Origin: Candidatus Iainarchaeum sp.
GTDB lineage: Archaea > Iainarchaeota > Iainarchaeia > Iainarchaeales > GCA-2688035
Assembly (NCBI GenBank): GCA_017610175.1
Contig: JAFCCO010000013.1
Location: 1 to 34,389, forward strand
Reading direction: 5' to 3'
DNA: 34,389 nt
Position numbers and translations under genes: made by a program. Shown here in pieces: positions 1 through 18,258 of the stretch (positions are counted from its first letter, which is position 1; each line of letters begins with the position of its first letter). The notes below the pieces were generated by a model. The model had not been told where the DNA came from. It worked only from the letters and a program-made list of their open reading frames with translations, and ran no database searches.

Positions 1-100
1 GCCACCCGAAAAAGGCCTTAAGCAAAGCCAGTTTTTGTTGGATTAGGAAGAATTAAGGGGTATAATGGATATTCCTGAACTTTGGCATTAGATAAAAATG

Positions 101-115
101 GCGCAGGGGACGAGA
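101..115. repeat. att core copy (displaced tRNA-Ser 3' end)
   Basis: gcgcaggggacgaga is identical to 7341-7355; on the minus strand it continues as ...CCCCTGCG-CCA then TTTTT. Confidence 0.93.
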
Positions 116-126
116 GTTCCCTGTCT

Positions 127-142
127 TTTCTTACGCACTGAC
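127..142. repeat. 16-bp inverted repeat, left copy (candidate recombinase binding site)
   Basis: tttcttacgcactgac is the exact reverse complement of gtcagtgcgtaagaaa at 7316-7331. Confidence 0.85.
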
Positions 143-210
143 TGACATACTAAGTGTGTTCCCCCCTTAAAAGCCTTCTGTTTAAAAAGAATTGTTCACA
201 ATATTTGGGT

Positions 211-417
211 ATGTCTGTAGGTAAAAAAAAAGCAATGGCAATTATTGGAGTAGGTAAGCCTCTTAGCTTGGCAATAGTAGCGGGGTTTGTTGTTGCTATT
301 GCGTGGGAATGGACTCCTGAATCGAAACTGCTTTACTTCTTAGTTATCGCTGCCTGCTTTGTTGCTTTGACAATAATTGAATACGGGACACAAAACTGGG
401 GGTTGTTTGGTGAATAA
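211..417 (+). CDS. small two-TM membrane protein
   Basis: Two hydrophobic segments; ATG at 211 preferred over GTG at 154. Confidence 0.6.
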   Translation: MSVGKKKAMAIIGVGKPLSLAIVAGFVVAIAWEWTPESKLLYFLVIAACFVALTIIEYGTQNWGLFGE

Positions 418-583
418 ATTTAAAGCAGAGTCAACTGTCACAGCTCACCATGAGGGAACGTATTTCAGAACAGCAATTCCTCGCGACATAGCCCTCAACA
501 TTTTAGGGCTTAAAACAGACCTCAAAAAACAGCGCCTCGTTTGGACAGTTGAAAAAGGAAAAGTGGTTGTGGAGAAGAAATGA
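410..583 (+). CDS. AbrB/MazE/SpoVT-like DNA-binding protein
   Basis: GTYFRTAIPRDIALNILGLK...LVWTVEKGKVVVEK fits the swapped-hairpin pattern; ATGA overlap with the next gene; GTG start assumed. Confidence 0.65.
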   Translation: MNKFKAESTVTAHHEGTYFRTAIPRDIALNILGLKTDLKKQRLVWTVEKGKVVVEKK

Positions 584-1359
584 GTGCTGAAGAAAATATT
601 CCAATTTCTACTAAATGGCTGTTTGATTCTGTTGGAGATACAGGACGGAATGTAATTGAACAAATGTTTATGATTGTGTCTTTAGGTAAAAAAGGAAGTG
701 GTTTTCTTTACAAAGACCTAGGAATTATTACAAATGAGCATGTGGTAAGAGATTGCAATTTGAATGATATCTTTGCAATAGACAGCAAAGGAAACAAAAT
801 ATCTTTTGTCGATATTGTTGTTGACCAAAATAAAGACTTGGCTTTTTTAAAACCTAAAATAGCATTAAAAGGCGGGCTTGAAATTGACACTAAAATAGAA
901 CCAAAACCAGGCGTGCAAATTTCAATCTGGGGGTATCCTCTAGCTTACAATGGACCCGCCCCCCTTCTTTCTATAGGTTACATTTCAGGATTCAAAGAAC
1001 ACAAAGAAACTAAGGATTCACAATCAGTTAAACATTTTGTTGTTAATGGCGCTTTCAATCCAGGTAATTCAGGCGGACCCATATTTATTACAGGTCAAGA
1101 TAAAGTAATTGGGGTAGTGGTTAACAAACATGCGCCAATCTCACAATTTTTGCTTTCAGCAATTGAGGTATTGGCTAAAAACAAAAGCGGACTTATTTAT
1201 ACTGCTAAAGATAGTAAAGGGATTGAAACAAAATTTGCCGAATCTCAAATTGTTGCACAACTGTTGAATCACCTTAGAACACTTACCCAAGTTATGATTG
1301 GAGAAGCAATTGAATCTTCAGAATTAATTCAATTCATTGAGGAGAATGATATCGAATAA
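580..1359 (+). CDS. trypsin-like serine protease (S1), no signal peptide or PDZ
   Basis: GSGF, ITNEHVV (His), DLAFL (Asp), FNPGNSGGP (Ser) triad motifs. Confidence 0.92.
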   Translation: MSAEENIPISTKWLFDSVGDTGRNVIEQMFMIVSLGKKGSGFLYKDLGIITNEHVVRDCNLNDIFAIDSKGNKISFVDIVVDQNKDLAFLKPKIALKGGLEIDTKIEPKPGVQISIWGYPLAYNGPAPLLSIGYISGFKEHKETKDSQSVKHFVVNGAFNPGNSGGPIFITGQDKVIGVVVNKHAPISQFLLSAIEVLAKNKSGLIYTAKDSKGIETKFAESQIVAQLLNHLRTLTQVMIGEAIESSELIQFIEENDIE

Positions 1360-1428
1360 TGGCAGACAGAACAACCACTGTCAAAATAATTTTCATCTTC
1401 AAAACAAAACTTGGAAAGTGATGTAAAA

Positions 1429-1986
1429 ATGAAAACAGGAACAATTATCTTAGCAGTTCTTACACTCATTTTGTTAAGCGGATGCACTCAAAGAGAATAC
1501 GTCTGTGCCGATGGGCAAGTTGTCAGCAATCCAAACCAATGCAACGCACCCAACATCCCTATGGAAACTCCTATCGAGCCACCCATTGAATCTCCTGTTG
1601 AGCCTCCTGTTGAGCCACCTGTAAATCCTCAATTCCTTGATTGCGGTTCAGACATTGATTGTTTTTCAGAGCGGTTGAAATACTGCGAGCCAGCAATAGT
1701 AACAATTCCTGATGGAAACAAAATCACAGAAGTAGATACCTACTCATACTTTGCCACCGCAAACACAACAGGAGAAATAGCAGACTATCTTGGAGTTTTT
1801 GACATATGCCATGTTAAATACACCAACGTCCTCCAATCTAAAAAAGCGCCTTTCTCAGAGAGAGTAACAAAAGAAACATTCGACCTCGTAACCTGTAACT
1901 ACAACGCGAACGAACCATTCTCTAAAATAGTTCGAGGCTACCCTGCTCGCATCGAACGCTGCTCAGGGGAAAACTTCAGGAGCTGA
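1429..1986 (+). CDS. predicted lipoprotein with Pro-rich linker and Cys-rich domain
   Basis: Hydrophobic leader, lipobox LLSGC, PIEP/PVEP repeats, DCGSDIDCF motif. Confidence 0.85.
   Translation: MKTGTIILAVLTLILLSGCTQREYVCADGQVVSNPNQCNAPNIPMETPIEPPIESPVEPPVEPPVNPQFLDCGSDIDCFSERLKYCEPAIVTIPDGNKITEVDTYSYFATANTTGEIADYLGVFDICHVKYTNVLQSKKAPFSERVTKETFDLVTCNYNANEPFSKIVRGYPARIERCSGENFRS
1570..1629 (+). repeat. imperfect 12-bp coding tandem repeat (PIEP PIES PVEP PVEP PVNP)
   Basis: cctgttgagc-type units within the lipoprotein gene. Confidence 0.7.
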
Positions 1987-1992
1987 AAGAAA

Positions 1993-2478
1993 ATGGGTGA
2001 AACACTTGGGGAAAAGCTAAGAAGGGAAGCTAAAGCAAGCGGGGCTGAATGGGATGCCCGTTTGAAAAAATTAGGTCTTTCCCCCCTCGCAGATAGTCCT
2101 ATCAACACAATTAGGGTGGACACAACCAGCGATACAATTCGTGCATCTCAAAGCAGTAACAAACTTATTTACAAACTCGCTTTGTTTGCAGCAGTCTTTG
2201 CAATACTTTCAGGAATGGCGGGGGCTGTTTTCAACAAGATATTTGAGTGGTATGCTTGGCTTGTTTGGATAGGTTTGGGCGCGGTTTTTATAGTGACGCT
2301 GGTGCTGGGGTGGGTATTTGAAGAACACGAATCAACACTGACAGATTTCAAAAAAGCAATCTATATCGTCCTCATTGCATGTGCTTTTTTTGCAATGATT
2401 TGGTTTATGCTCAGTAGCTGGACAGCAATCATTGCATCAATCCAAAACGCGGGGGCTCAACGCACGCACGCGTGGTAA
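1993..2478 (+). CDS. membrane protein, three TM helices
   Basis: Soluble N-terminus then three hydrophobic stretches; 6 nt after the lipoprotein gene. Confidence 0.75.
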   Translation: MGETLGEKLRREAKASGAEWDARLKKLGLSPLADSPINTIRVDTTSDTIRASQSSNKLIYKLALFAAVFAILSGMAGAVFNKIFEWYAWLVWIGLGAVFIVTLVLGWVFEEHESTLTDFKKAIYIVLIACAFFAMIWFMLSSWTAIIASIQNAGAQRTHAW

Positions 2479-2562
2479 CTAATACTAAACTTACCCAGAA
2501 AAGCAAAAAATTAAGAAAAAGCGATTTTCCCTATTAGTATAGTTTAACTTATAGAGTAAACT

Positions 2563-2823
2563 CTATTCCTTTTCTCCCCCGACAGCCTCCTGCAAAATTT
2601 TCTGAACCAACCCACTCCGCTTTCCAAAAAGCTCTCGCCAGTGAACCTCACCAATGAAAATTTGTTTCCGATGACAAGCAACACCACCCTTCAGAGGAGT
2701 CAACACAAGGCATCGGCTATTGCTTCCCATTTGCCCAACCTGAACCTCAAAGGAGAACGCGCCCTTCGGGTCAGTCTGATACTTTCCGTGCAACACCTTC
2801 CACTGCTTAACTTCTTTCTTCAC
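2563..2823 (-). CDS. hypothetical small basic protein, last gene of the ATPase operon
   Basis: GTGA overlap with the ATPase stop. Confidence 0.65.
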   Translation of the reverse strand: MKKEVKQWKVLHGKYQTDPKGAFSFEVQVGQMGSNSRCLVLTPLKGGVACHRKQIFIGEVHWRELFGKRSGLVQKILQEAVGGEKE

Positions 2824-4223
2824 AAGAACTCACCTTCCTCTTCTTCTTCCTTTTCCTCAGATCCCACAGACACATCCCCTGACTTCTTGATGACAACCCT
2901 CAAGCTGTCGTTCAATGTGTCAGTGTATGTCACCGACTCAACAAAGGCTTGAGCGTTAATCCAATCAAACACTGACTCCCCTGCCTTCCGATGCCTGCCC
3001 TGACAGGGCGCACCGAAAAACGGATAAAGAAAATTCTGTGCTCCAATCCTCTGAACGAAAAACACTCCCGCCTGCAAGCTCGGAAGCTTAGCCCGAACAT
3101 TCAAGGGAATGAAATTGAAATTGTCAGACAGCCACGCAGCATCCTTTGCATGAAGCCCGCCACTCACAACCCAGCCAATGTTTGACAAAACGGTGGCGTC
3201 CAAATCCGCAGGACGCTGTGAATCCAAAGCAAGCGTGACGCCCAACAAACGGGACTCTCTTGAAATTGTTCTGAGAACCGTCAGCGAACTGAATCCAGAC
3301 GATGCAGCATCAGGGGAAATGCTTGCCTTAGAAGGACAAAAGTTTGCTGCCTCTGGAATCGCCAGAAACATGGACGGGTATTTCTTTGTCAACCTCAACT
3401 CCAAAATCTTTCTCACGACCACGCAAAAAATCAAAAAGGCATAAGACTGCTCGCACCGACTCAAGTCAATTGTTGTAATTGTTCCAGAGTCTTGGAGAAC
3501 CTCATCAAGGTTTATGCGGAACTGGTTGTCGTCATCACAAAGCAAGCCCGACCGTTGCAGTCCCGACACGAGCCTCAGCATCCCGCCGAAGATTTCCTTT
3601 CGCCCAATCGCAGCCGAGCCGTCCTTCGATTCAATGGACAGCTTGTAATTCTTGTCATCCACCAGTTGCACGAGTACCGTGATGAACTCTTCAATTGATT
3701 TGAATTCCCGAAGCTTGAACAGTGTGTCCAAAGAAATCTGTGCAGAAACGGTTGCGTTCCGCATCAAAACCAACAAGTCATCCGCTCTCAAATCACTGAA
3801 CGCAATTTTGAAAGGTTTCATGTCCAACCAGCCAAAATCACGTCCCTCGCCAGCCATTTTCTCTTGAAATTCCACAAACTTGTCAGTATGGCGCGGTAGG
3901 GTCACGGACATTTTGTTTCCCTCTATTTGAAACCTGTTTCGCACAAATGGAACAAGCACCTCAGTCGGGAAAGGGCGGGGTCGCTTATTGTGGTCATACC
4001 TCAACGCCCTAACCAGCACAGGGTCGTCCTCAGCAAAGCCAAGAGTGATGGCTTCCGATTTCAACGTGAAAATAATCACTTTTTGCCCAGCAGATCATTT
4101 GTTGCAAGCAATGGATTCCAAGAGGCAAGTTTTTCCTCTCCCCGTCACCCCGAACAGAGCGACGTGTCGAACGTCATCGAAAATCTTTTCGTGCCCAATA
4201 ATCTTCACGCGCTCAGACTTCAT
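2820..4223 (-). pseudogene. HerA/FtsK/VirB4-like P-loop ATPase interrupted by one in-frame TGA
   Basis: ATG 4223 (GGTGA upstream) reads MKSERVK...ALFGVTGRGKT (Walker A), hits TGA at 4095-4097, then runs in frame into the 419-aa ORF with RESRLLGVTLALDSQRPADLD; Walker B is atypical (FLAIPE). Confidence 0.85.
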
Positions 4224-4905
4224 CTTCACCCTCTTCCTTTTTCTCAGCTTGTTGCACAATCAACTGAACAGGTTGCTGGGCTGGAGCTTCTTCCTTTCCG
4301 CGAGGCACAAGAGCAGGGTTTTTTTTGGGAAGTCGGTAACCCAAAGTTTCGTCCTCAAGACCCGTTCCCTTCAGAATTTCCTGCGCCGAACTTAGCACAA
4401 AAATATCCAACTCAAGCAAACGCATTATTGACTCGTCCACTGCAAGCTTTCCAGAAAGTAACGCCTGCTTCAGTAACCTTTTTCGCTTTGCTCCAATGAA
4501 CTTTGCCTTCGCAGCAGTTTCATCTTTATTAAGTTCAGAATAACCACTGTGACTCAATGTAGGGCTGTAAACACTGAGCACTGGTTTGACGGTTGCATAC
4601 TTTTGCGCAGCTGCATAATATCTCTTTGCGAGAACAAAGTTCTGCAAGCTAATCACCTTCTTCGAATTGAAAATAATCGGGGCAGCAATTTCAACAAACA
4701 AAATTGCGGCATGAATTGCAAGCTCGTCATCCCCATTCAAAGTGTGTGCTTCAAGCTCGCCGAACTTCAGGCTCAGAAATTCAGAATAAGCCGAGCCCTT
4801 CGAAGTCAAACGCTTTCCGCGAACTTCAAACATCCGCTCCCACTTACTCGTCTGGAAATTCATGTCCTGCATGTATGTGCCAACCTCCAATTCACGCTGA
4901 GTCAT
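4213..4905 (-). CDS. hypothetical protein, coupled to the ATPase
   Basis: 230-aa ORF overlapping both neighbours' start/stop. Confidence 0.75.
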   Translation of the reverse strand: MTQRELEVGTYMQDMNFQTSKWERMFEVRGKRLTSKGSAYSEFLSLKFGELEAHTLNGDDELAIHAAILFVEIAAPIIFNSKKVISLQNFVLAKRYYAAAQKYATVKPVLSVYSPTLSHSGYSELNKDETAAKAKFIGAKRKRLLKQALLSGKLAVDESIMRLLELDIFVLSSAQEILKGTGLEDETLGYRLPKKNPALVPRGKEEAPAQQPVQLIVQQAEKKEEGEDEV

Positions 4906-5189
4906 TTTCTCACCCTCTTCTCAGCTTTGCGTTTCTTTCGCTTCAGCATTTTCTTCTCGTCTTTGTCAACCCAAAACATCATAACACTCGCAAGCTGTTT
5001 CTTCTGAGCAGGCAACGATTTCTTATCCCAAAGGTTGAACCCTTCAATGTCATAAAAATCAATATTGCCAACGTCGTATCTGCAAAACTTGTTTGCGTCC
5101 CGCACCTCATTCGACCAAATCCTGAATGAGATGGGGTTCATTTTGTTGTGGTAAATTTGTTCCTCGCACCATTCAATAATTTCGTTCAA
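4902..5189 (-). CDS. hypothetical protein with basic C-terminus (start uncertain, possibly 5'-disrupted)
   Basis: ATGA overlap with the downstream gene; an in-frame ATG at 5270 is separated from it by TGA at 5223-5225. Confidence 0.55.
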   Translation of the reverse strand: MNEIIEWCEEQIYHNKMNPISFRIWSNEVRDANKFCRYDVGNIDFYDIEGFNLWDKKSLPAQKKQLASVMMFWVDKDEKKMLKRKKRKAEKRVRK

Positions 5190-5204
5190 ATCAATTTTGT
5201 CAAA

Positions 5205-6044
5205 ATGTTTGTGAACCTGCTCTCAGGGAAAAAGCAGCCCAGCAAACTTGCCAAGTTGCCTGAAGAACATAACGGGATTTTAAAAAAGTGTTATCTTGAT
5301 GACATCAAAAGAGCAAAGGAGGAAATCAGGGGGTTGAAAGGGCGGGATAGTGAGCGAGCCAAAACAAGAATCGAAACACTCATAAAACAAATAATTGTTT
5401 TGGAGAAAAAGTTTATCAGAAATTCAAAAGGTGGAATCAGTCTTAAACCACAACCTTCTTCCAACCCTCAAGAGCTCAGGCAAATATTGTTTGAGAAAAT
5501 CCCTAATGATATGGGTGATGAGTTAATCGAAAAGCAGGATGGTTTTGGCAAGACTAAATTTTACGGTATCATTCCCGAATATTTTCTCGTTCTTGGCATG
5601 GACAAAAGAATGTGCAATATAATAGAGTATATGGTTGACACTATTGGAGAAAATGACATTAACCATGTTTGGGATGGAGCAATTCAAGATGATTTACAGT
5701 TAGCCATTCGTTCAACATTCAAAGTCAATGATGGGCTTTCCAATCGCAACGCGGAGAAATTGCTTGGCGACAGGCGCGAGAAAATTAAGAATGAGGACGA
5801 TTTTTGGAACGCTCTGTTTGAAGTGCTTTTGGATTCAGAGAAATTTTTGTTTTTTATTGAATCTGTTCAAAACCAATATTTCTACATTGTCAACGAAGCA
5901 TATAACAAAATTTACAGGCGTTTCGTTAAAGGTGACACAAGGTCTGTTTTGGATGGCATTATTTCAAATGACGCGCCGAAAAAAAGCAAAAAGGAAATTA
6001 TAGACGAACAATTGGCACGTGAATTTTCTATTAAATTGGTTTGA
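5205..6044 (+). CDS. hypothetical protein of element 1
   Basis: Long open frame, charged and helical, convergent with the integrase; start uncertain. Confidence 0.75.
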   Translation: MFVNLLSGKKQPSKLAKLPEEHNGILKKCYLDDIKRAKEEIRGLKGRDSERAKTRIETLIKQIIVLEKKFIRNSKGGISLKPQPSSNPQELRQILFEKIPNDMGDELIEKQDGFGKTKFYGIIPEYFLVLGMDKRMCNIIEYMVDTIGENDINHVWDGAIQDDLQLAIRSTFKVNDGLSNRNAEKLLGDRREKIKNEDDFWNALFEVLLDSEKFLFFIESVQNQYFYIVNEAYNKIYRRFVKGDTRSVLDGIISNDAPKKSKKEIIDEQLAREFSIKLV

Positions 6045-6070
6045 AAAATAGAAGGTGAGCGGTTTCCCGC

Positions 6071-7277
6071 TCAGATGATTCCTTTTTCTGTTGCCCATTG
6101 GTCGAGTATCTGTTTGAACAGTTGCGCGTTCTCATTGCTGAGGAAATTCCCCTTCATCTTCTGCTGCTCGTCCCTCACAGTTTGTTCACAGTGCCTGCCA
6201 CATTTGGGGCAGAAACTTTGGTCTGGTGCAAAGCTTTGTTCGCACTGTGGGCAGAATTGCATTTCCAGCTCTTGTGGCTTGTATCGCTGTTCACGTTTGC
6301 CGTGCATTGCGTCCTCGTAGTCGTGCAAGTCCTTGAATTTGGCGTGTGTGTATTTCTTTGCCATGCGCGAACCATGAACATGACCAAAGCGAAGGTCAAT
6401 CAGTGTTTGTGGAACGCCTTTGACTTGGCAGTCGGTGTAAACCAAGTGACGACCGGAGTATGGATTCAATCGCTTCTCAATGCCTGCTCGTTCGCCCAGT
6501 GCCCTGAGTTTTTTGTAGAACCCACCGTATGACAAATGCTTTGCCCTTGAGTTCAAAAGCAAAGGTGCGTCAGGGTCTGCCCGAAAAGGATGCTGGTTGA
6601 GATAGTTTCTGAGGGCTGAAGTGAACGGCTCGTAGAGTTTGATTTGCCTGTATCCAGTTTTGTTTTGTTCGCCAACATGGAAGAGCACGCAGTCCTTTTC
6701 CTCAGACAGAAATTGCCAGTTTTTTATACGGCTGTTACCAAATTCAGCAGTTCGCGAACCGATTTTCAGATAGGCATAGGCAATCAGAATTTCCAACAAG
6801 GTTTGGGCTGCTTGCACAAGCCTTTTGCGTTCTTCAGTGTCAAGAAAATCGTCTGGATTGTATACAGGAACTGCTTTTTCCTGCCTTTGTGTTGCACAGT
6901 TTCCTGATGTCCTTGTAGCGTTTGCCTTCTTCGTCATCTAACCAGCGAAAATACTGCTTTACCATCGTCTTATAATCTTTAATGGTGCTGGTCTTGCGTT
7001 TTTCCTTCCTCAACTGAAGCAAGAGAATCTCGATGTCCGCTTTCTCAAGCTTGTCAAGCTTCTTTCCTTTGAGTCGTCTGCATATTTGCTTCAGGGTATT
7101 CAGCACCTTTAGCTGTCTTGCGTTGCTGTTGCCATTCAAAATGCAGTTCTTTTCGTGGAATTCAAAAATTAGTTTCTGGTTGTGGGCAGAAAGCTCTGCC
7201 TTAATGTTTGATGTTTCCTTTCTGAGCTTGCCTTCGTATCCATGAATGTCGAGCTCAGTTTCTTTCCATTTACTCAT
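6071..7277 (-). pseudogene. tyrosine recombinase/integrase with C-terminal double Zn ribbon, split by a frameshift
   Basis: N-terminal binding domain (6840-7277) overlaps the catalytic ORF (6071-6937: GSRTAE, KTG, PYSGRH, FGH, KKYTH, CPQC/CPKC); deleting one A of the A5 run at 6875-6879 fuses them; GGAGG upstream. Confidence 0.9.
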
Positions 7278-7315
7278 ACACACTTCGCCTCCTAACGTCC
7301 CTTTTAAGACTATGC

Positions 7316-7331
7316 GTCAGTGCGTAAGAAA
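7316..7331. repeat. 16-bp inverted repeat, right copy
   Basis: Reverse complement of 127-142. Confidence 0.85.
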
Positions 7332-7340
7332 TAACTAAAA

Positions 7341-7355
7341 GCGCAGGGGACGAGA
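7341..7355. repeat. att core copy overlapping the tRNA-Ser 3' end
   Basis: Identical to 101-115. Confidence 0.93.
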
Positions 7356-7424
7356 TTCGAACTCGCGCGCCCCGAAGGACTCAAGCTTAGCAGGCTTGCG
7401 CGTTAACCGCTCCGCCACCCCTGC
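7342..7424 (-). tRNA. tRNA-Ser(GCT)
   Basis: Acceptor GCAGGGG/CCCCTGC, anticodon arm CAAGC-CTGCTAA-GCTTG, long variable arm, TTCGAAT loop. Confidence 0.97.
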
Positions 7425-8277: not shown

Positions 8278-8961
8278 TCACTTCAGCATGTCTGCCGTGC
8301 CTGCCCCTATGTTTGCAAACAAGCCAACGAACAGCACAAGCCTTAGCGCCCAGCCTAAGCTGGTTACCTGCCCGCCGATTACCCCAAAAATGAACAGAAT
8401 CAATGCCGCTGTGGAGTATGAAACAATAATCAGTGAAAGGAGCCTGGTTGGGACAATGTTGAATATTTTTTGTGACTCAACTTCCTGGTATTTGGTGAAG
8501 TAAATAAGCAGTATGTCGAAAGTAAGTGTGATTGCAAGTATTACAATAACGCGGTATATGTCAAGGGCAAAGGCAAGCATCCAAACCTCTTCGGTTACGG
8601 CAAGCGGTGCGCTCAGGATTAGTGCCCCAACAATTTGCTGCGCAAGGTCGTCGAAAGCAAACTTGTCCGGGACAATTTTTGCCCTAACCTTTGCGAGAAT
8701 TGACTCCTGGCCCTTCTGAATCTTGTCAAGGTCTTCCTTAATGTCGTCAACGTCCTCTTTGATGTCGTCAACGTCTTCCTTTATTTCGTCAAAGTCTTTT
8801 CCGGCGTCAATAACCTGTTCCTTTATTTCGTCAACGTCCTTTCCCGAGTCAAGAACCTGCTCTTCAATCAGCTCAAGCTTGTCTCCACTCTCTTCAACCT
8901 CTTTGGAGATGTCCTCAACAATCTCGTCAATCTTCTTGGCTTTAAGTGTTTTCTTGGGCAT
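8278..8961 (-). CDS. DUF2391-like membrane protein with acidic coiled-coil N-terminus
   Basis: DDLAQQIVGA...PLAVTEEVW motif, four TMs; ATG 8961 with GGTGAG upstream. Confidence 0.8.
   Translation of the reverse strand: MPKKTLKAKKIDEIVEDISKEVEESGDKLELIEEQVLDSGKDVDEIKEQVIDAGKDFDEIKEDVDDIKEDVDDIKEDLDKIQKGQESILAKVRAKIVPDKFAFDDLAQQIVGALILSAPLAVTEEVWMLAFALDIYRVIVILAITLTFDILLIYFTKYQEVESQKIFNIVPTRLLSLIIVSYSTAALILFIFGVIGGQVTSLGWALRLVLFVGLFANIGAGTADMLK
8741..8880 (-). repeat. imperfect 21/42-bp coding repeats (DVDDIKE heptads)
   Basis: atgtcgtcaacgtc units at 21-bp spacing. Confidence 0.75.
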
Positions 8962-9038
8962 TTGGCTCACCACTGCTGAATTAGCTGTTCTATTATTGTA
9001 CAAAAACCATTAAATTGGTTTGGAAGCCCAATCATTGC

Positions 9039-10661: not shown

Positions 10662-11086
10662 TTTGCCAGGTGGTTTTGATTGTGATTGAGGCTTTGATGT
10701 TTACAATGTCCTGGGGTATAAAGATATTGCTTTACATCTCGATTTTAATCCTTTTTACCAAGCGAAAGAGTGACGTGGAAAAACTGAAGTTTATTGCACT
10801 GATTGCGCTGATTCACGTGATTTTATTTTTCCCGGTTGTTCCTGCCATACTAATTGACCCGTTGATTTTGATTGCACTGCTGCTTTTTCAGATTCCTCTT
10901 TGGATAAGCAGGGAAACGGCAATATTTATCTTGTTGGTAATCATTTTTTTGCCGGTCCAGCAGTTTTTCTGGATTTTTATGCTTACGCAGGTAATATATG
11001 TAATCATAATTGGCGGCCTCATATATGCCACGCTTTTTGAAAAAATACCTAAAAAAGAAGAAAGCGAAAAACCAGAAACTAATTGA
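10655..11086 (+). CDS. hypothetical membrane protein
   Basis: Very hydrophobic ORF overlapping the nadE stop; start uncertain. Confidence 0.65.
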   Translation: MVICQVVLIVIEALMFTMSWGIKILLYISILILFTKRKSDVEKLKFIALIALIHVILFFPVVPAILIDPLILIALLLFQIPLWISRETAIFILLVIIFLPVQQFFWIFMLTQVIYVIIIGGLIYATLFEKIPKKEESEKPETN

Positions 11087-11093
11087 TTCAAAA

Positions 11094-11110
11094 GCGCCCC
11101 CTGGGGGCTT
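11094..11110. repeat. degenerate att core copy of the tRNA-Asn 3' end
   Basis: gcgccccctgggggctt vs gcgcccccgggaggatt at 18258-18274 (14/17). Confidence 0.7.
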
Positions 11111-11250
11111 ATTACTTTAAATCAGATGCCCCGGGCTTTTTTTGGCTGAATTCTTTCTACTGAAATAGTATAGTGCAAGGTTGTTAATTCGGTTCGCTGT
11201 TTGGTAATTTTGGGAAAAATAGCTTTGATTTTATTGCAGTGGGGTGTTGG

Positions 11251-12210
11251 CTATTTGATGTATTTTAGGTATCCTTCGAAGAATTTTTTGTAGGTGTCTT
11301 TGTATTTTTTTAGGAATAGTCTTTCGAGGTTTTTTGTGTATCCCCTGTGAAAGTCTTGAAGGCATTTTATATATGAGTCTCTTTGTGTTTTTCTGATGAT
11401 AAATGGGGGGTAATTCTGGTTGATTAGTATTGTGTTTGATATGAATCTTCCCACCCTGCCGTTTCCGTCTTCAAATGGGTGTATTTTTTCAAACTTTCCG
11501 TGGAACAATGCAGAAACCTGTATAGGGTGCATGTTTTCAGCGTTTTTTTCATGCCATTTAATTAGCGCGGCCATCTCTTCCTCCACTTTTTCAGGGGGGG
11601 TTAGCTTAACATCGCTACCGGCAATATAATTTGGTATTTGTTTGTATCCTGTTCTTTCATCCATGTCTTTCATGAGAATTTTGTGCATTTTAATAATGTC
11701 TTTTTCATTTACGTCAAATTTTTTCTTTACAAGAGAATCCATGACCTTTCTGCTGTTTCTTGTTTCGTAAATTTCCCTGAGGTCCTTTCCCTCAATTGTG
11801 CGTTTTTCAAACATTACTATTGCAACGTCCTTGAGGGTAAGGGAATTGCCCTCTATAGCGTTGGATTCATAAGTAAAGTTTGCTATGAACCTGTCGAAAA
11901 CATCTTTAAGCTGTGGCTTGCTAAACCCCTTCAATGCTTTCCTGTAGTCAACCTTTATTTCTTCAACCTTGCGAATTTCTTCTTTACTGAAAATGGAGTC
12001 TGTCTTGTATTTTTTTAGAGCATATTCTGTAAAAGCCATTTTTTTCTTTGAATCAAAAAAATCAGCATATTTCTTTTTAAGCTTCTTTAAAGGTTCTTTC
12101 TTTTTGATAATCTTTTCAACAGAATTTACCTTTCCGTTGGGCAATCTAAAAGATTCTGCCAAGTAATAGTATTTCCTCTTTTTGATGGTCTTTTCTTTGA
12201 TGTAAACCAT
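11251..12210 (-). CDS. Fic family protein (AMPylase) with built-in inhibitory motif
   Basis: Canonical HPFEDGNGRVGR; upstream SNAIEGN inhibitory motif. Confidence 0.95.
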   Translation of the reverse strand: MVYIKEKTIKKRKYYYLAESFRLPNGKVNSVEKIIKKKEPLKKLKKKYADFFDSKKKMAFTEYALKKYKTDSIFSKEEIRKVEEIKVDYRKALKGFSKPQLKDVFDRFIANFTYESNAIEGNSLTLKDVAIVMFEKRTIEGKDLREIYETRNSRKVMDSLVKKKFDVNEKDIIKMHKILMKDMDERTGYKQIPNYIAGSDVKLTPPEKVEEEMAALIKWHEKNAENMHPIQVSALFHGKFEKIHPFEDGNGRVGRFISNTILINQNYPPFIIRKTQRDSYIKCLQDFHRGYTKNLERLFLKKYKDTYKKFFEGYLKYIK

Positions 12211-12399
12211 ACAATAATATTATCCCTACAAATATATAAACATATGTTTATTGTAAGTATAATTCGCCCCTGGAAGAAAACCTCTAAAACAAGCCCCAAT
12301 GCCTTGTGATAATTACGGTTTAGAAAAATATAAACCCGCCTATAGCCTGAAAACTTGTTTATGGAAACCTTTTTACATGTTTTTTGCGGTGTTACTATA

Positions 12400-13080
12400 A
12401 TGAACTGCCCGAAGTGTGGTAACAAAATTATAACGTCGTTCAATTGCAAGTTTTGTCATAATGACTTTTGTTCTAATTCTTGTCGTTTTCCAGAGAATCA
12501 CAAATGTTGGGAGGCTGAAATGTTTAGGGTCTTTAGTTCTCTTGCAGTTAAACATAATTTGGGCACCTTGCGTGGGCCCCGTGAAGAAACAATACAAAAA
12601 TATTACCGTCCTTGGCTTGATCAATTGCGAGGTACAAAAAATTTATCAAAAGAACAATTAGAAAAAGCTTTTGTAAAACTCATCAGCGCAAATGAACAAC
12701 AAGAAGTTATTATTATTAAAAAAGAGCCAGAAAAAACAGTGTTGATGCCAGATGTGTTCTCAAACCAATTAATAGAAGAAAAAAAGAAAAGATTCACACG
12801 GATTGTTAGATTAGCGGCGGAAGTAAAAAAAGTTTCAATGCCTGAAGTCATATTCAATGAAACATTTTGCCCAAACCACAAAAATGAAATCGCACATATT
12901 CACTTGGAAGGTAAAGGAAAAATCTGTGTTCCAAAAAGAAGCTTACATATGATGAATTACTTGGATGTAGAAGACACTGCAGTTCATGAAGTCTGCCACC
13001 TTTTTGTAGAAAAACATGGATTGGAATTCAACAAAACAATGTCAGAAATAAAACAAGCAATTTGGAATAAATTACATTAA
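12400..13080 (+). CDS. AN1-type Zn finger fused to a zincin-like (YgjP/SprT/WLM-like) HEXXH domain
   Basis: CPKC...CKFC...FC...RFPENHKC at the N-terminus; AVHEVCHL...HGLEF at the C-terminus. Confidence 0.8.
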   Translation: MNCPKCGNKIITSFNCKFCHNDFCSNSCRFPENHKCWEAEMFRVFSSLAVKHNLGTLRGPREETIQKYYRPWLDQLRGTKNLSKEQLEKAFVKLISANEQQEVIIIKKEPEKTVLMPDVFSNQLIEEKKKRFTRIVRLAAEVKKVSMPEVIFNETFCPNHKNEIAHIHLEGKGKICVPKRSLHMMNYLDVEDTAVHEVCHLFVEKHGLEFNKTMSEIKQAIWNKLH

Positions 13081-13146
13081 CTGACAAACTAACTTTTCGA
13101 AACCTTTTTACATAGTTTTTTTAATGAAAAAGCACATACTGCTATA

Positions 13147-13230
13147 ATGTCTTATTGCACAAAATGCGACAAAGAAATTGAAAAGAAAGTGGGTGAACAA
13201 AAAGAAATACAGGAATTAAGCAGTAATTAG
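13147..13230 (+). pseudogene. 27-aa CxxC ORF, probable truncated Zn-finger gene
   Basis: MSYCTKCDKEIEKK...; upstream sequence repeats that of the 12400 gene. Confidence 0.4.
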
Positions 13231-13254
13231 TAGTGATGGTTGAATGGTTTTGTT

Positions 13255-13665
13255 ATGAGTTTTTTTGATAGAAAATGGGATTGTTCTATTCTTTATTTTG
13301 AATTCAAACACAAAGTCCCCTATCAAGAGTTTAAACACAAAGTTAGGGCAGTGGCGAACATTCCAATAGAAACAGGATTTTGTAAAAAAACTTATATGCT
13401 GAACTTACAAACGCCTGATAAAAAACAAATTGGTGCAATTGAAATTTGCTGTTTTGATGTCCAATTTTCGAAAAGAATAGGTTTTTTAGGGGATTTCACA
13501 AAAGCAATGGAAATGGGTATAACTACTTTTGGAAGAATTAGGGAAACTTTAGAAACGTTTGGTATAGAAGCAAGTTACACCCAAGAAAAAAGTTCAAACT
13601 TTAGAGCAAACGAAAAAGAATTTTCAATTATGTGCCTATCCCCATTTAAAAAAGATGAAGACTGA
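13255..13665 (+). CDS. hypothetical protein
   Basis: Open frame in a co-oriented run. Confidence 0.65.
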   Translation: MSFFDRKWDCSILYFEFKHKVPYQEFKHKVRAVANIPIETGFCKKTYMLNLQTPDKKQIGAIEICCFDVQFSKRIGFLGDFTKAMEMGITTFGRIRETLETFGIEASYTQEKSSNFRANEKEFSIMCLSPFKKDED

Positions 13666-13729
13666 ATACTTACACATTACTCACGATGCGGAAGTTTAAG
13701 AATTGAAAATAACTGAGGGGTGATTTGAA

Positions 13730-13930
13730 ATGGTTGAGTATGAGTATCTTGTGAAAGGAACAGTGCAGGCAGGTATATTGAATCCATGGCCAGTCAATAA
13801 TGAAGGGGTTTTTGAGAAATTGACAGATGAGCTTAACAAATTAAGCACAGAGGGGTGGAAACTTATTGCAGTAATTCCTTCTGGAAACAATGATAGGGAA
13901 ATTTGTTATCTCAGAAGAGAAAAAAAGTGA
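13730..13930 (+). CDS. DUF4177-like small protein
   Basis: YEY...LNKLSTEGWKLIAV...YLRR pattern; GGTGA upstream. Confidence 0.75.
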   Translation: MVEYEYLVKGTVQAGILNPWPVNNEGVFEKLTDELNKLSTEGWKLIAVIPSGNNDREICYLRREKK

Positions 13931-13937
13931 TGATGGG

Positions 13938-14120
13938 ATGGAAATAAAGAAACAGGATATAATAATTCCTGCAGTTCTTGCAGGACTATCTCTCATAAGA
14001 AGCCCATATGGGATGTTGTCTCTTTCAGGTATTGTTGGTGCAATAGTCACATTTGTGGTGGTGTTCGGGGCTTTAAAACTTTGGGATTATGCATCCGAAA
14101 AAATGAAGAAAAAGAAGTGA
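13938..14120 (+). CDS. small membrane protein
   Basis: Two hydrophobic segments and a basic tail. Confidence 0.65.
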   Translation: MEIKKQDIIIPAVLAGLSLIRSPYGMLSLSGIVGAIVTFVVVFGALKLWDYASEKMKKKK

Positions 14121-14126
14121 TTTGAA

Positions 14127-15707
14127 ATGGGTTCACGTAGACATTCGGGTGGAAGATATGATTTTGTTGATGACCCTGATGAAAGGGAAAAGAGGCTGTT
14201 GAATAAAAAGTTTGGAAAAAGCGCAAGGATTAGCAGTGGTTCCGGGACTAAAAAAAGGAGTGCTTCAAAACCAATTTACATTTCCCCTGAAGATAATTAT
14301 GAAGATATTTCAAGAAATGCTCAAATAGAAGAAAAAAGACAGGAAGCAAGAAGACAAGGCAAGCCTGATTATTGGGTTGAAAAAGCTCCACCAAAAAGAA
14401 AAATTACAGGTATAACACAAAAAGCCAGGAAAGCATTTAGGCAACTTAAGTGGTGGCTTGGAAGCAATACTAGTAACTATCGTTTCAGAACCTACTCTGC
14501 ATTAAAGAATCTCATCGGTTTTGTAGCACTATTGATTCTGACTTTAACTGTTTATGCAAATGTTGAAAGTTTGAATGAAAAACCATTTCTATTTTTAAGA
14601 ATTGGAAGTATTGCACTGGTTGCTCTTACAATCGGAAGCATCATCTTACTAAAAAGATTTTATGTCAATCTTAAATATGGCTACAAAGGCAGCAGAAATG
14701 CCATCAAACTATTGCTATTTTTGGCGCTGTTTATGTTAGCAATAGGAGTTTACGCCAATCAAGATACAGTCTTCCCAACACTGAAAGAGAAATACGAGAA
14801 TATCAATTTGGGCAAATTCAATCCGCTTATTTTTACTTACAAAACAGTTAGTGGAAAAGCAGAAGAAGTAACAGGGGGGGCACTTGGAAAAATTGAAAAT
14901 ATTCTAAATTGCCCGGAAGGATATGAATTAGTTGATGAAGATTGCATATCCTTATACATAACAAACCCTGTCGAAAAAGAGTTTGAGTATGTTGTCGATG
15001 GAAAATTAGATAAAATAAATTTTGAGTTATATGGTGGAATTAATGATTACTTGGCTGGAAAGCCTAAGTTTTACTATTGCCCCCCAGACTGTTCTCAAGA
15101 GGATTTTGAACTAAAAGTGATTAGTGAACCACAACAAAGTGAACAACTAGATAAACTAGTTGAATTAATTCAAAGTAAAGAAAGTGAGAGTGATGAACAA
15201 GCCAGAATTGCAATAAGTTTAGTTCAGAAAATAGATTATGATTGGGGTGCACTTGAAACTGGAACTTTAACTGGGCGATACCCTTATGAAGTTTTGTTTG
15301 ATGAACGAGGAGTTTGTGGAGAAAAAGCAAAACTTCTTGCATATCTGTTAAAAGAAATTGGTTACGGGGTTGTCCTTTTCAATTATTCTGATCACCAAGC
15401 AGTAGGAGTCAAATGTCCAAAACAATACAGCTTAAATGGCAGTGGATACTGCTTTATTGAAACAACAAGACCAACAATTCCAACAAATGATAAAGAAAAT
15501 TATGTTCTGTCTGGGCCATTGGGTAATCCAACTTCAATAACTCTTGTAAATGAGGGGGACTCCTTTGAGAGTATAAAAAAAGAATATGAAGATGCTAAAG
15601 AATGGAATAAAATTCGGGAGATGGGGTTCGTTCTTTCACAAACACAATACAATCGTTGGACATCTTTGGTTAACAAATATGGTATAGAAATTGATAAAGT
15701 GATTTGA
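14127..15707 (+). CDS. membrane-anchored transglutaminase-like cysteine protease
   Basis: Three TMs, then YPYEVLFDERGVCGEKAKLL (Cys), DHQAVGV (His), FIETT. Confidence 0.88.
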   Translation: MGSRRHSGGRYDFVDDPDEREKRLLNKKFGKSARISSGSGTKKRSASKPIYISPEDNYEDISRNAQIEEKRQEARRQGKPDYWVEKAPPKRKITGITQKARKAFRQLKWWLGSNTSNYRFRTYSALKNLIGFVALLILTLTVYANVESLNEKPFLFLRIGSIALVALTIGSIILLKRFYVNLKYGYKGSRNAIKLLLFLALFMLAIGVYANQDTVFPTLKEKYENINLGKFNPLIFTYKTVSGKAEEVTGGALGKIENILNCPEGYELVDEDCISLYITNPVEKEFEYVVDGKLDKINFELYGGINDYLAGKPKFYYCPPDCSQEDFELKVISEPQQSEQLDKLVELIQSKESESDEQARIAISLVQKIDYDWGALETGTLTGRYPYEVLFDERGVCGEKAKLLAYLLKEIGYGVVLFNYSDHQAVGVKCPKQYSLNGSGYCFIETTRPTIPTNDKENYVLSGPLGNPTSITLVNEGDSFESIKKEYEDAKEWNKIREMGFVLSQTQYNRWTSLVNKYGIEIDKVI

Positions 15708-15708
15708 A

Positions 15709-15846
15709 ATGAAAACAGGATTGATTATCTTAGGAGTCATCGCACTGGTTTTGCTAAGCGGATGCACTCAAAGAGAATATATCTGTCCGGACGGGACAAT
15801 TGTTAGCACTCCGTGTGAAAAAATCATCCACAAAAAAGTTGTGTAG
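15709..15846 (+). pseudogene. truncated paralogue of the element-1 lipoprotein (leader plus first motif only)
   Basis: MKTGLIILGVIALVLLSGCTQREYICPDGTIVSTP vs MKTGTIILAVLTLILLSGCTQREYVCADGQVVSNP; similarity ends where the convergent CAP gene ends. Confidence 0.85.
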
Positions 15847-16303
15847 CATAAAACTTGTTACCCGTCTGTTTAACTCCAATCCCAATTTTATCAAAATTAC
15901 TATTTAGAATGTTTGCCCTGTACCCCTTACTATTCATCCAATTTTTATGCAAAGCACGAGCTATGTCTTGTTCTGTTTTAATAGGATGTTTAAATCCAAG
16001 GATTTGGCCTTTACACATCATGGCGACATTCTCACCTGAAATAGTAATATAGTTCATGGAAATTGTACCCTCCAGAAAAAACCATATTTTCTGCCAGAAA
16101 GTCTTTGGTTTAATTTCAAAACTTTTTATAGCCTTGTGTACTCCAGAACCATGCCAAATGCGTCTCTTTTTAGCCATCTTTGCACTATGTTTGCGCGCGA
16201 TAGATGTAAGCCTACCATACTTCTTAAATTTTGCGAGATTTTTTTTCTCCCGAACCCTGTTCACTCTAGTAAAAATTCGGTTTTCAATATGGGTAGTACT
16301 CAT
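15824..16303 (-). CDS. CAP (SCP/PR-1) domain protein
   Basis: VNRVR, ARKHSAKMA, GENVA, WMNSKGYRANIL, IGIGV, YATQLF. Confidence 0.92.
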   Translation of the reverse strand: MSTTHIENRIFTRVNRVREKKNLAKFKKYGRLTSIARKHSAKMAKKRRIWHGSGVHKAIKSFEIKPKTFWQKIWFFLEGTISMNYITISGENVAMMCKGQILGFKHPIKTEQDIARALHKNWMNSKGYRANILNSNFDKIGIGVKQTGNKFYATQLFCG

Positions 16304-16555
16304 TATTACATATCAGGGGTGAGTACTATAAAAATTTTTCTGATACAAAATCCATGCAAAACAATTTTTTTGCCAAATGTTTAAACAAACCAACCTGTTA
16401 AAAAAATCGTTGACCTGAATGCAGTCAGGCGCATTACGCACAAAAGAAGGCTTAAGCAAATTAACCAAAGAAACCTTGGAATTGAACACGAGTTCAATTA
16501 CTCAACTCAAGAAGTATAAAAGCAAGAGGTGAAGGGGTTATGCATAAAAACTAGC

Positions 16556-17455
16556 TTAGTTCTTTTCGTTTAAGTTTATTTCAAGCGTGGTTGGTATTTC
16601 AGACTTATGTTCAACTTGTTTTGTAACTTGTCTGGCAAACAGCCCCAACCAGGTGGGTTCAGTAACAATAAGCTCGTAGTTATTATCCCCTAAAAAAACT
16701 GTAAAATCACCGTCAGCGTTTGTAACTCCAGTTATGACTGTATTATTAGCTGGGTACTTCTCATTTTTACTCTTAAGCTCTATTATTGCGTTTTCAATCT
16801 TTTTTATTTTATCAACTACCGATATGTGTAATTCTGAAGTTTCAGTATATTTTTCAGTTACACTCTGTTTTTGTCCCTTTTCATCCACCCAGTAAGCATA
16901 AGAGTACTGTTTGTTTGATTCCAGATTTTTTTCATAATAATCTGGATAATTAAACAAGCCTATAGAGGGGTCAATATGAACCCAAGTTCCATCCAAATAT
17001 ACTTCGTTCCATTGATGGTTTTCCCCATCATTACGAATTTCTCTTACATCTAATCCCACTGCGCGCCCCATATAATTATACAAATTAGATGCCTCACCAC
17101 AGCGTCCCTCTCCCATAAAAAAAAGCCAAGTGGTACCTAAATTAAAAAATCGAAATAACAAAAATTGAATAGAATCTCCATTGAACTTACTTCTGACCCA
17201 ATTGCACAATAAATATGCTTTATTGTAGTCAGTACTTTCCAACTCAAAGGAATGCGGATTTATACAATTTATTCTGAAATCAAAATTCTCTTCCGTAACT
17301 AATTCTCTGGCTTTTGGGGCAAAAAAGAAGTTATTAACAAAACCAATCTCCAGATATGCAAAGATAATAGGTAAGACTACCAAAATAAATATTACCACTG
17401 CAAAGGCAGACATTGTTTGATTATTAGAAATATTTTCCTTTATTTTACTTAACAT
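16556..17455 (-). CDS. membrane-anchored transglutaminase-like protein, PNGase-like core, C-terminal beta-sandwich
   Basis: N-terminal TM; GRCGE (Cys), ENHQWNEVY (His), WVHIDPS (Asp); GVTNADGDFT carboxypeptidase-regulatory-like tail. Confidence 0.88.
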   Translation of the reverse strand: MLSKIKENISNNQTMSAFAVVIFILVVLPIIFAYLEIGFVNNFFFAPKARELVTEENFDFRINCINPHSFELESTDYNKAYLLCNWVRSKFNGDSIQFLLFRFFNLGTTWLFFMGEGRCGEASNLYNYMGRAVGLDVREIRNDGENHQWNEVYLDGTWVHIDPSIGLFNYPDYYEKNLESNKQYSYAYWVDEKGQKQSVTEKYTETSELHISVVDKIKKIENAIIELKSKNEKYPANNTVITGVTNADGDFTVFLGDNNYELIVTEPTWLGLFARQVTKQVEHKSEIPTTLEINLNEKN

Positions 17456-17613
17456 GCTAACACTAAAGTAGAACCCCCTTATAAGAATTAATTTAGCTCG
17501 CTCCTCTTCTTCCTTCTTCTATTTCTTTGAATTTTTGTTTTTTTTTTGTCTGGTTTGTTTGAGTTCTTGTTTGAGTATTGTGCTTTCGATTATTGCGCTT
17601 ATTTTGTTTGATT

Positions 17614-17655
17614 TTTGTAGTTCTTTTGCTATTTGTAGTTCTTTTGCTATTTGTA
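17614..17655. repeat. perfect 18-bp tandem duplication (2.3 copies)
   Basis: tttgtagttcttttgcta x2, inside a 57-aa minus-strand ORF (17519-17692) that may be the integrase tail. Confidence 0.85.
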
Positions 17656-17688
17656 TTACTGCTTTTTTCCATTTTGTGTCAAGGTCTT

Positions 17689-18189
17689 TCATGTTGTTTC
17701 CTCTGCATTGTTTGTGTTTTGTTCGAGACCGTGTGCCTTGTCCCTTTTGTTGGTTACTGCCTTAATTAGTTTTTTGATGTCTTCCTAGTCAAGCAGTTGT
17801 TCGGGCAGAATGTTGTTGCCGGTTTTTTTGAACGAAAACCATTCAACCGACTCGGGGTATTTTCCTTTGTTGAGCTATTTGTGAAAGACCTTCAGGATTT
17901 GGTTGTATGTCCAGATACTTCCGTCTTTGTAGCCCCTGTTCTTCATCCAGCTTAGGGATAGTTTATAGCCCTCCTTTGAGGCCTTTTCAAAGTCCTTGTT
18001 CAGCTGCTTTGCGGTGAGACGAAGAACAGACATCTGCCTGAGCATTCTGGGAATGCTTATTCCCTTTGCAGGGTTGTGCTAGTAAAAACGCATTATTGCG
18101 TCCTTGTTTTCTGTGCAAAGTATTGATTCTTTTACCCTTTCAATTTCTCTTTCGAGATTCCGCCCGTAAGGGTGGATGTACTCTTTCAT
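17689..18189 (-). pseudogene. tyrosine integrase relic (N-terminal domain only; three TAG stops; catalytic domain deleted)
   Basis: Manual translation MKEYIHPY...FY*...TYNQILKVFHK*LNKGKYPESVEW...LPEQLLD*EDIKKLIKAVTNKRDKA parallels the element-1 integrase; TAGs at 18079-81, 17875-77, 17785-87. Confidence 0.88.
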
Positions 18190-18258
18190 GTTGCTACACC
18201 TTCCCCCGCCGAAAACCATTTAAATATGGCAGGCGAGGGAATCTGAAAAGAAGAAGTG

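Follow-up and report, generated by a model that had tools for sequence, protein, structure and literature searches.

The DNA analysed here, called the window below, is a whole contig of 34,389 nucleotides (JAFCCO010000013.1, assembly GCA_017610175.1; contig C1) from the genome of Candidatus Iainarchaeum sp. This genome comprises 1.24 Mb in 34 contigs and is 90% complete. As the 215 species representatives of the host phylum are listed at 0.3-1.5 Mb, it is reasonable to call the host a 'DPANN-like' small-genome archaeon. Near the left end of the window an element of about 7.2 kb (116-7340) is inserted at a tRNA-Ser gene, with host DNA on both sides. It carries an integrase gene, an operon around a HerA/DUF87-type ATPase gene and a cassette of genes on the opposite strand. 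The features of the element and its borders are as follows.

101..115, no strand: core of the left attachment site (attL), a 15-nt copy of the tRNA-Ser 3' end and an exact repeat of 7341-7355.
127..142, no strand: left arm of an inverted repeat, 16 nt, 11 nt inside attL and 100% complementary to the right arm.
154..417, plus strand: small protein of 87 aa (68 aa if started at ATG 211) with two predicted transmembrane (TM) helices; GTG start at 154, hydrophobic segments 29-47 and 57-75.
377..583, plus strand: basic protein of 68 aa, from the list of open reading frames (ORFs); no significant match in Pfam, PHROGs, PADLOC or NCBIfam.
580..1359, plus strand: cytoplasmic trypsin-like serine protease of 259 aa; Pfam Trypsin_2, E 1e-16.
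1411..1986, plus strand: Cys-rich secreted or lipoprotein-like protein of 191 aa; N-terminal hydrophobic segment followed by Cys.
1993..2478, plus strand: membrane protein of 161 aa with three predicted TM helices, judged from hydrophobic segments.
2563..2823, minus strand: 86-aa ORF overlapping the ATPase stop (GTGA), of uncertain coding status by its coding score.
2820..4223, minus strand: HerA/DUF87-type P-loop ATPase gene of 467 codons, interrupted by TGA at 4095-4097 (codon 43).
4213..4905, minus strand: protein of 230 aa, acidic in its C-terminal tail; its gene overlaps the start of the ATPase gene; from the ORF list.
4902..5189, minus strand: first gene of the operon, product with a basic C-terminal tail, 95 aa (TTG 5189) or 79 aa (ATG 5141); no family match.
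5205..6044, plus strand: ORFan of 279 aa, transcribed away from the operon and towards the integrase gene; from the ORF list.
6071..7283, minus strand: tyrosine integrase pseudogene; Pfam Phage_integrase E 1.6e-13, Phage_int_SAM_4 E 7.5e-6.
7316..7331, no strand: right arm of the inverted repeat, 16 nt, 9 nt inside attR and 100% complementary to the left arm.
7341..7355, no strand: core of the right attachment site (attR), within the tRNA gene and an exact repeat of 101-115.
7341..7424, minus strand: tRNA-Ser(GCT), intact, the integration target; ARAGORN, and Rfam RF00005 with 62.2 bits over model positions 1-71 of 71.

The 15-nt direct repeat matches the window twice with up to two mismatches allowed, a number that was reached in none of 100 shuffled sequences, and these are the sole two copies across all 34 contigs. 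The 16-nt inverted repeat inside the two ends was likewise reproduced in 0 of 100 shuffles. As its arms lie 11 and 9 nt from the cores, they would flank the core symmetrically in the excised circle and probably represent the predicted binding sites of the integrase. Overall, these data demonstrate that a 15-bp core recombined site-specifically with the 3' end of tRNA-Ser(GCT), whereby the tRNA gene was regenerated. The bounded tRNA-Ser element with both attachment sites, as described in a first-pass annotation of the sequence, is thereby confirmed by the exact repeat, the intact tRNA and the uniqueness of the pair in the genome. The recombination would have been carried out by the element's own tyrosine integrase. 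That chance repeats happen to lie beside ordinary host genes and no element exists is extremely improbable. The direct repeat is admittedly only 15 nt long and does not rank among the 20 largest of 27 direct-repeat families. However, neither repeat arises upon shuffling, the direct repeat is the exact tRNA 3' end in direct orientation with an integrase adjoining, a perfect inverted repeat lies symmetrically inside both ends, and the ATPase family and the protease are absent from related genomes.

The left edge of the window lies 100 nt outside attL, and the flank beyond it was recovered from contig C6, the final 114 nt of which equal window positions 1-114. Overlaps of 114 nt occur at six contig junctions in all, that between C6 and C1 included, and the shared exact overlap places the two contigs next to each other in the assembly graph. 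At its end C6 encodes adenylosuccinate synthetase (purA), IMP dehydrogenase, a DUF1003 protein, a response regulator and a 257-aa ORFan. Outside the element, contig C1 contains archaeal housekeeping genes (FEN1/XPG, FtsZ, a UbiA-family prenyltransferase, thiamine and pyridoxal phosphate synthesis, NAD synthase). Host-like genes thus flank the element on the left (C6) and on the right (C1). The left-flank gene was not found in the 22 other genomes of the family. The graph node shared by the C6 end (L003, 14887-15000) and window 1-114 stops 1 nt short of the point at which the attachment core ends on its inner side. This position may reflect population heterogeneity at the attachment site; a simple empty site or a circle junction would put the break one base further on.

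The gene content of the element was then compared with family libraries (Pfam, PHROGs, NCBIfam and PADLOC). At the library thresholds used, the element ORFs matched no capsid, Rep, relaxase or type IV secretion system family, in agreement with the first-pass annotation. In line with its suggestion that the element is possibly undescribed, no element gene matched a described virus or plasmid family in these libraries, in GenBank phage and virus records, in PLSDB, where ordinary HerA paralogues alone were retrieved, or, for the ATPase, in IMG/VR. A codon-usage score, for which 501 long ORFs of the genome served as the training set, peaks in the annotated frame for all element ORFs, that at 154-417 among them, except for the ambiguous 86-aa ORF (0.032 as compared to 0.082 for one opposite-strand frame). 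The scores of the element ORFs (0.03-0.26) are lower than those of four host genes (0.30-0.47). In the 215 genomes of the phylum no ATPase of the family was found, the matches being partial and to housekeeping HerA alone; the best non-self match had an E value of 1.3e-24 (profile positions ~200-400) as compared to 3e-186 for the ATPase of the window. The 259-aa protease has no counterpart in the 22 other genomes of the family. The absence of the ATPase family from the phylum, the absence of the protease from these 22 genomes and the lower codon scores together demonstrate that the element is foreign to the host lineage.

On the minus strand the genes 4902-5189, 4213-4905, 2820-4223 and 2563-2823 overlap by 4, 11 and 4 nt, respectively, and therefore form a translationally coupled operon. 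The four-gene arrangement around a HerA/FtsK-type ATPase proposed before is thus seen in the overlaps, with the reservation that the ATPase gene is interrupted by TGA and that the 86-aa ORF is ambiguous. The plus-strand cassette 154-2478 faces this operon, which bears out the previous description of a convergent cargo cassette. The starts of the first operon gene (TTG 5189) and of the divergent 279-aa ORF (ATG 5205) are 15 nt apart; a start at ATG 5141 would leave a divergent, 63-nt AT-rich promoter region and seems more plausible than TTG 5189.

Two genes of the element carry a lesion that the first-pass annotation had not noted. The integrase, which is present beside attR as annotated before, is split over two frames, with the SAM-like N-terminal part in 6840-7283 and the catalytic part together with a zinc ribbon in 6071-6937. 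Integrase relatives in the 22 other genomes of the family are single open frames, and seven ORFs extracted from them measure 398-496 aa. The N-terminal fragment matches five and the C-terminal fragment all seven of these intact ORFs in colinear order; in L028, for example, residues 13-132 of the N-terminal fragment correspond to residues 15-133, and residues 28-246 of the C-terminal fragment to residues 136-350. These colinear matches to single ORFs locate the frameshift between about 6856 and 6887, a stretch which contains a run of five A residues. The SSV-type integrases of the pT26-2 plasmid family are split by integration, in contrast to the frameshift found here.

The ATPase ORF as listed (2820-4079) is without Walker A, and the same frame runs upstream to ATG 4223. 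Walker A (GVTGRGKT, residues 25-32) lies upstream of the TGA at codon 43. With 41% identity over 463 residues, P0002 is the nearest homologue; the alignment to it crosses this TGA and places X43 opposite Trp. Trp is present at this position in the five nearest relatives, and Tyr, Phe or His in most others. Pfam DUF87 is matched by the read-through protein with 33.4 bits (cut-off 23.2), the truncated 419-aa ORF failing with 13.6 bits, and 11 of the 14 aligned family members match it as well. A recoding of TGA as Trp is unlikely, since TGA ends eight of the twelve listed element ORFs, the ATPase gene among them, and is therefore an ordinary stop here. The simple reading of the sequence is that a TGG codon would have changed to TGA. 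Beyond one event each, the integrase and ATPase genes look intact, which suggests that both were inactivated recently. The element described previously as complete is therefore complete in its borders and not in its genes, and most likely the present copy is a recently inactivated, cryptic integrated element.

Alternatively, the element could still be functional and mobile at present, as a small provirus, a satellite or an integrative plasmid in the sense of the first-pass annotation, with the two lesions being assembly artefacts or minority alleles. We regard this as unlikely. It would agree with the single nature of the two events in genes which keep good coding scores, with the A5 run in the frameshift stretch and with the graph node ending 1 nt short of the inner core edge, which may indicate a heterogeneous population. 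However, exact 114-nt overlaps fit a short-read de Bruijn assembly, in which substitutions to a stop codon and one-base errors in 5-base runs are uncommon, ordinary Pfam domain matches with no break apparent were obtained for the 24 larger ORFs across the remaining 27 kb of the window, and the graph break is one base off from what an empty site or a circle junction would simply predict.

The ATPase was characterized further by means of a family profile. This profile matches the HerA structures 8xau (E 1.5e-18) and 4d2i (E 1.5e-14) over the C-terminal core and the HerA-like protein YjgR (E 1.8e-5) at the N-terminal P-loop (chain residues 26-72); FtsK, TrwB and STIV B204 follow far behind HerA, B204 with a weak match (E 9e-4). 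By profile, the ATPase thus belongs to the same fold family as HerA and YjgR/DUF853 (PDB 8xau, 4d2i, 11kk). It differs from them in several respects. The HAS barrel of canonical HerA is absent, Walker A beginning already at residue 25, and a family-specific insert of ~180 residues lies between Walker A and Walker B. The Walker-B-like motif of the window's ATPase, FLAIPEA, departs from hhhhDE, and in 10 of the 14 aligned sequences Walker B reads hhhhPE, with Pro at the Asp position and an invariant Glu. K31, E291, R325 and Q336 are invariant in this alignment, R325 and Q336 being judged from the alignment. The FtsK-HerA definition of Iyer et al. from 2004 reportedly includes a conserved Arg finger and a Gln after sensor 1. 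Many relatives end in a helix-turn-helix (HTH) region (HTH_7, HTH_23/28/29 or a Terminase_5-like region), in contrast to the ATPase of the window, which is without an HTH tail.

Among 1.84 billion protein representatives, 114 are matched at E<=1e-3, 28 at 1e-10 and 12 at 1e-30, the query included. With tblastn, the element matched nothing in GenBank phage and virus records, and the ATPase gave seven weak matches in PLSDB, one of which was inspected and proved to be a HerA in a Mre11-Rad50-NurA cluster, as compared to the mobile-element context of the window's ATPase family. Scans of IMG/VR with the ATPase and with the spike-like protein described below retrieved no relative, which, these being short-peptide-pattern searches, is weak evidence of absence; one scan matched just 25 residues of an HTH tail. 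The GTDB contigs yielded nothing with the ATPase alignment A2, and a scan with the homologue P0006 led to the contig L036. The ATPase clade is rare, and its contexts so far are mobile-element-like DNA, having been found there only, in two contexts.

These two independent contexts, L025/L024 and L036/L041, were compared with each other and with the window. L025 represents 14 kb of a 29-kb metagenome contig with co-directional ORFans, a NUMOD3/DUF559 homing endonuclease and a serine resolvase. L024 and L025 come from separate metagenome records and are 100% identical over 10,364 nt; the same element was thus sampled twice. L036/L041 (G215:C65) is a contig of 17.4 kb and 43% GC with matches to TrmB-like and PF0610-like HTH families. 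L041 encodes two methyltransferases (one of them a C5-methylase) and a tyrosine integrase, and alongside the family ATPase it has another one of ordinary HerA/DUF853-like type. It was placed in the bin of a betaproteobacterial metagenome-assembled genome (MAG) but resembles an archaeal mobile element; it is probably mis-binned. On both L025 and L036, a small soluble protein whose charged C-terminal tail is acidic is encoded ahead of the family ATPase, an arrangement shared with the window. The 230-aa protein of the window matches its counterpart in L025 (8376-8870) in BLASTP with an E value of 0.001 in a database of 15 proteins, and no similarity to the L036 counterpart was seen.

Farther upstream, both contigs encode proteins with an N-terminal TM segment, small proteins with two TM segments and a spike-like protein of 351-364 aa that has a signal peptide and is anchored by a TM segment at residues 282-300. 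The spike-like proteins of the two contigs are homologues of each other, sharing 23.5% identity over 238 residues with an E value of 5e-9 in a small database, and the element in the window has no homologue of them. Thus, the recurring unit is the ATPase, perhaps with its upstream partner, and the four-gene operon does not recur. The ATPase is found without the other operon genes, so that an independent occurrence of operon genes, which would speak against a conserved module, is seen in part. The relatives reside on larger elements (17 kb or more, and 29 kb), and no second element with the gene order of the window was found. The proposal in the first-pass annotation of a family of compact elements is not upheld, since what recurs is the ATPase, perhaps with the upstream protein, on much larger elements.

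By analogy to other members of the FtsK-HerA superfamily, the ATPase would most likely be a ring-shaped pump for double-stranded DNA which exports or packages the excised element. The C-terminal HTH domains of the relatives could recognize the element's own DNA. Since the membrane and spike-like proteins that lie beside the relatives on the larger contigs are missing from the 7.2-kb element, it may have depended on a larger related element as a helper. The possibility that the ATPase is instead a replicative helicase-initiator of HerA type, with an origin-binding HTH in the relatives, is very unlikely. HerA proteins are helicases, and C-terminal HTH domains are found on the relatives. Furthermore, neither the element nor L041 nor the 14-kb portion of L025 carries a recognized Rep, primase or polymerase. 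On the other hand, no mobile element is known to use a replicative helicase of HerA type, a long non-coding stretch for an origin is missing from the element, the largest gaps between its ORFs being ~95 and 84 nt, and membrane proteins neighbour the ATPase gene in the relatives.

A role of the locus in defence or exclusion was also considered, with the HerA-like ATPase and its partners and/or the protease cassette as the active part and the integrase and attachment sites as the vehicle. PADLOC HerA models match the ATPase (best E 4e-12; mad8 E 2e-8), as does the NCBIfam model of anti-phage HerA (E 9.3e-6), and the protease resembles domains of defence proteins (RT-Protease_XI E 2.4e-19, LmuA E 1.8e-11 in PADLOC). 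However, the HerA matches are partial and confined to the ATPase core, with 24.5 bits against a family cut-off of 800, in place of the full-length match with a Sir2 or nuclease partner that characterizes HerA defence systems. Neither Sir2 nor a nuclease or other known effector partner was detected in the Pfam and PADLOC scans. The relatives of the ATPase lie among membrane and spike-like genes of ORFan-rich elements and not in defence islands, and the similarity of the protease is that of a generic trypsin fold, as seen with Pfam. A defence or exclusion island is thus rather improbable as an explanation of the whole locus.

Among the described classes of elements, the cryptic integrated elements (CIE) of Thaumarchaeota are the best fit. 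Three features that mark such elements were found, namely direct attachment-site repeats with an intact tRNA, an integrase gene adjoining the attachment site (start 57 nt from attR) and foreign content without viral or plasmid hallmark genes at the thresholds used. As reported (PMC6563490), the attachment sites of the thaumarchaeal elements have a median length of 17 bp and go down to 8 bp, and most elements are smaller than 20 kb. They share with the present element an integrase, short attachment repeats, the absence of viral or plasmid hallmark genes and a content of mostly ORFans (PMC6563490). They differ in the host lineage, and the present element has a HerA/DUF87-type operon as well as a broken integrase and a broken ATPase gene.

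Larger tRNA-integrating elements with a comparable ATPase are the pT26-2 plasmids of Thermococcales and Methanococcales. They measure 17-38 kb (PMC6972569), as compared to 7.2 kb here, and their core comprises many membrane proteins and a HerA/VirB4-like ATPase, t26-14p, which has been proposed to move DNA. This core layout matches that of the relatives L025 and L041. A pT26-2-like ATPase is not supported for the element of the window, as no sequence link was found and none of the seven PLSDB matches came from Thermococcales or Methanococcales.

Pleolipoviridae were examined for their similar genome size (7 kb for HRPV-1, FJ685651) and for a gene order that looks like that of L036. A membrane protein, a spike, small ORFs and a P-loop ATPase make up the core of this family, some members being temperate with an integrase (PMC5867852). 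Membership was rejected, as hhalign of the ATPase family against VP8 gave a probability of 2.1%, covering the P-loop only, and tblastn of the element against a collection containing HRPV-1 gave no match. The VP4-like spike architecture, a signal peptide with a C-terminal anchor, is not found among the element ORFs; L025 and L036 do encode a protein of this outline. As for viruses with jelly-roll capsids, the STIV B204 match is the weak one given above, and no capsid family was matched in Pfam or PHROGs.

Circular elements related to spindle viruses and satellites of the pSSVx type measure 2.7-9 kb and carry part of a virus morphogenetic module (bioRxiv 10.1101/2025.02.15.638363). This part comprises an ATPase, in some cases together with a small hydrophobic protein, and the elements are proposed to be helper-dependent (bioRxiv 10.1101/2025.02.15.638363). 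In a functional analogy to these reduced elements, the present one has an ATPase, and perhaps one small protein, in common with larger elements. However, their ATPases are of AAA+ type and they carry plasmid Rep genes, as opposed to the DUF87/HerA type and the absence of a detected Rep gene in the present element (bioRxiv 10.1101/2025.02.15.638363). Replicons of the Rep-Arvir type (PF25227/DUF7845; PMC13107129) are likewise not supported; no DUF7845 match at E<=0.1 was obtained on the element ORFs with the Pfam copy used, in which the inclusion of PF25227 is unconfirmed.

A further reading, which we put forward as tentative and rather doubtful, places the 7.2-kb element within an undescribed lineage of membrane-associated archaeal elements marked by the ATPase, as a satellite or reduced derivative which has kept the motor module and relies on a helper. 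This lineage may consist of enveloped or pleomorphic viruses, or of plasmids transferred via vesicles or pores, and the ATPase may be its one-protein, sequence-specific motor for DNA export or packaging beside a spike-like type I membrane protein.

Taken together, we consider it reasonably probable that the locus is a cryptic integrated element of a DPANN-like genome with a coupled operon around a DNA-pump-like ATPase, the present copy being probably dead or dying. Several points weigh against this interpretation. The role as a DNA pump is drawn from superfamily analogy alone, and the window's ATPase has neither a TM segment nor an HTH tail, nor the usual Asp of Walker B. No replication gene was recognized in the element by the library scans. 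No second element of the same gene order was found which would show the module to function or move as a unit. Homology of the 230-aa protein to its positional counterparts is marginal (at the BLASTP value given above) or undetectable. Furthermore, L041 lies in a betaproteobacterial MAG bin, and both lesions, the frameshift as well as the TGA, may stem from assembly or consensus errors or represent minority alleles.

The remaining genes of the element gave few assignments. For the 95-aa and 86-aa ORFs, the four family libraries gave no match, and neither did the two related contigs L025 and L036. For the 230-aa and 279-aa proteins, no relatives apart from the queries themselves were found in a collection of 5.8 billion proteins, and searches of PDB sequences were empty at E<=1. 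In the ESM Atlas the 230-aa protein gave no usable match, and the 279-aa protein reached a top score of 0.80 with winged-helix clusters, a value which shuffled proteins attain in about one third of cases. Single-sequence AlphaFold2 models of the 279-aa and 230-aa proteins are all-helical and unusable, with mean confidence values (pLDDT) of 41.7 and 38.6, respectively.

Within the plus-strand cassette, the 87-aa protein with two TM helices has no detectable similarity to any family in Pfam or PHROGs. For the ORF 377-583 an AbrB-like assignment was dropped, as Pfam gives no support. The 191-aa protein has no family match, and its PDB sequence search was empty at E<=1. A truncated paralogue of the start of its gene (1415-1532) lies outside the element at 15696-15812 on the plus strand; it is 80% identical and encodes the signal peptide and ~25 further residues, followed by a stop. 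The genes 1411-1986 and 1993-2478 share a common frame and are separated by a TGA and 6 nt. Joined, they would give 354 aa with a signal peptide and C-terminal TM helices, an outline like that of the L025 and L036 spike-like proteins. An AGGAG motif situated 10 nt ahead of the ATG of 1993-2478 argues for separate genes, and no sequence similarity of the pair to these spike-like proteins was found. The protease/membrane cassette could be cargo, serving for example in exclusion or defence.

Elsewhere in the window, a stretch at ~11000-18250 has a GC content of 0.32-0.37 as compared to ~0.45 elsewhere and ends at a tRNA-Asn gene (18258-18331, minus strand). It encodes a Fic protein, a zf-AN1 protein, two transglutaminase-like proteins and a CAP-family protein. 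A second element at this tRNA-Asn was rejected, as no integrase was seen and no tRNA-derived repeat of at least 12 nt is present in the window. The gene 8278-9003 (minus strand), the product of which has a C-terminal DUF2391 domain, contains a 21-nt periodic repeat in five copies at 8699-8845; these copies probably encode a heptad-like repeat. In a simple repeat scan of the genome for CRISPR arrays, the sole match was a tandem protein-coding repeat of ~75 nt on contig C28 (2300-2900), which does not represent such an array.

Mobile elements have seldom been described from small-genome, DPANN-like archaea, and the one presented here is cleanly bounded by attachment sites. It is a single, probably inactivated copy, and most of its genes are without assignment. 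Its chief value lies in the identification of a rare clade of HerA-type ATPases. If this clade is a transfer or packaging motor, it would represent a new module for archaeal DNA movement, and the ATPase would then serve as a marker for larger elements such as L025 and L041.

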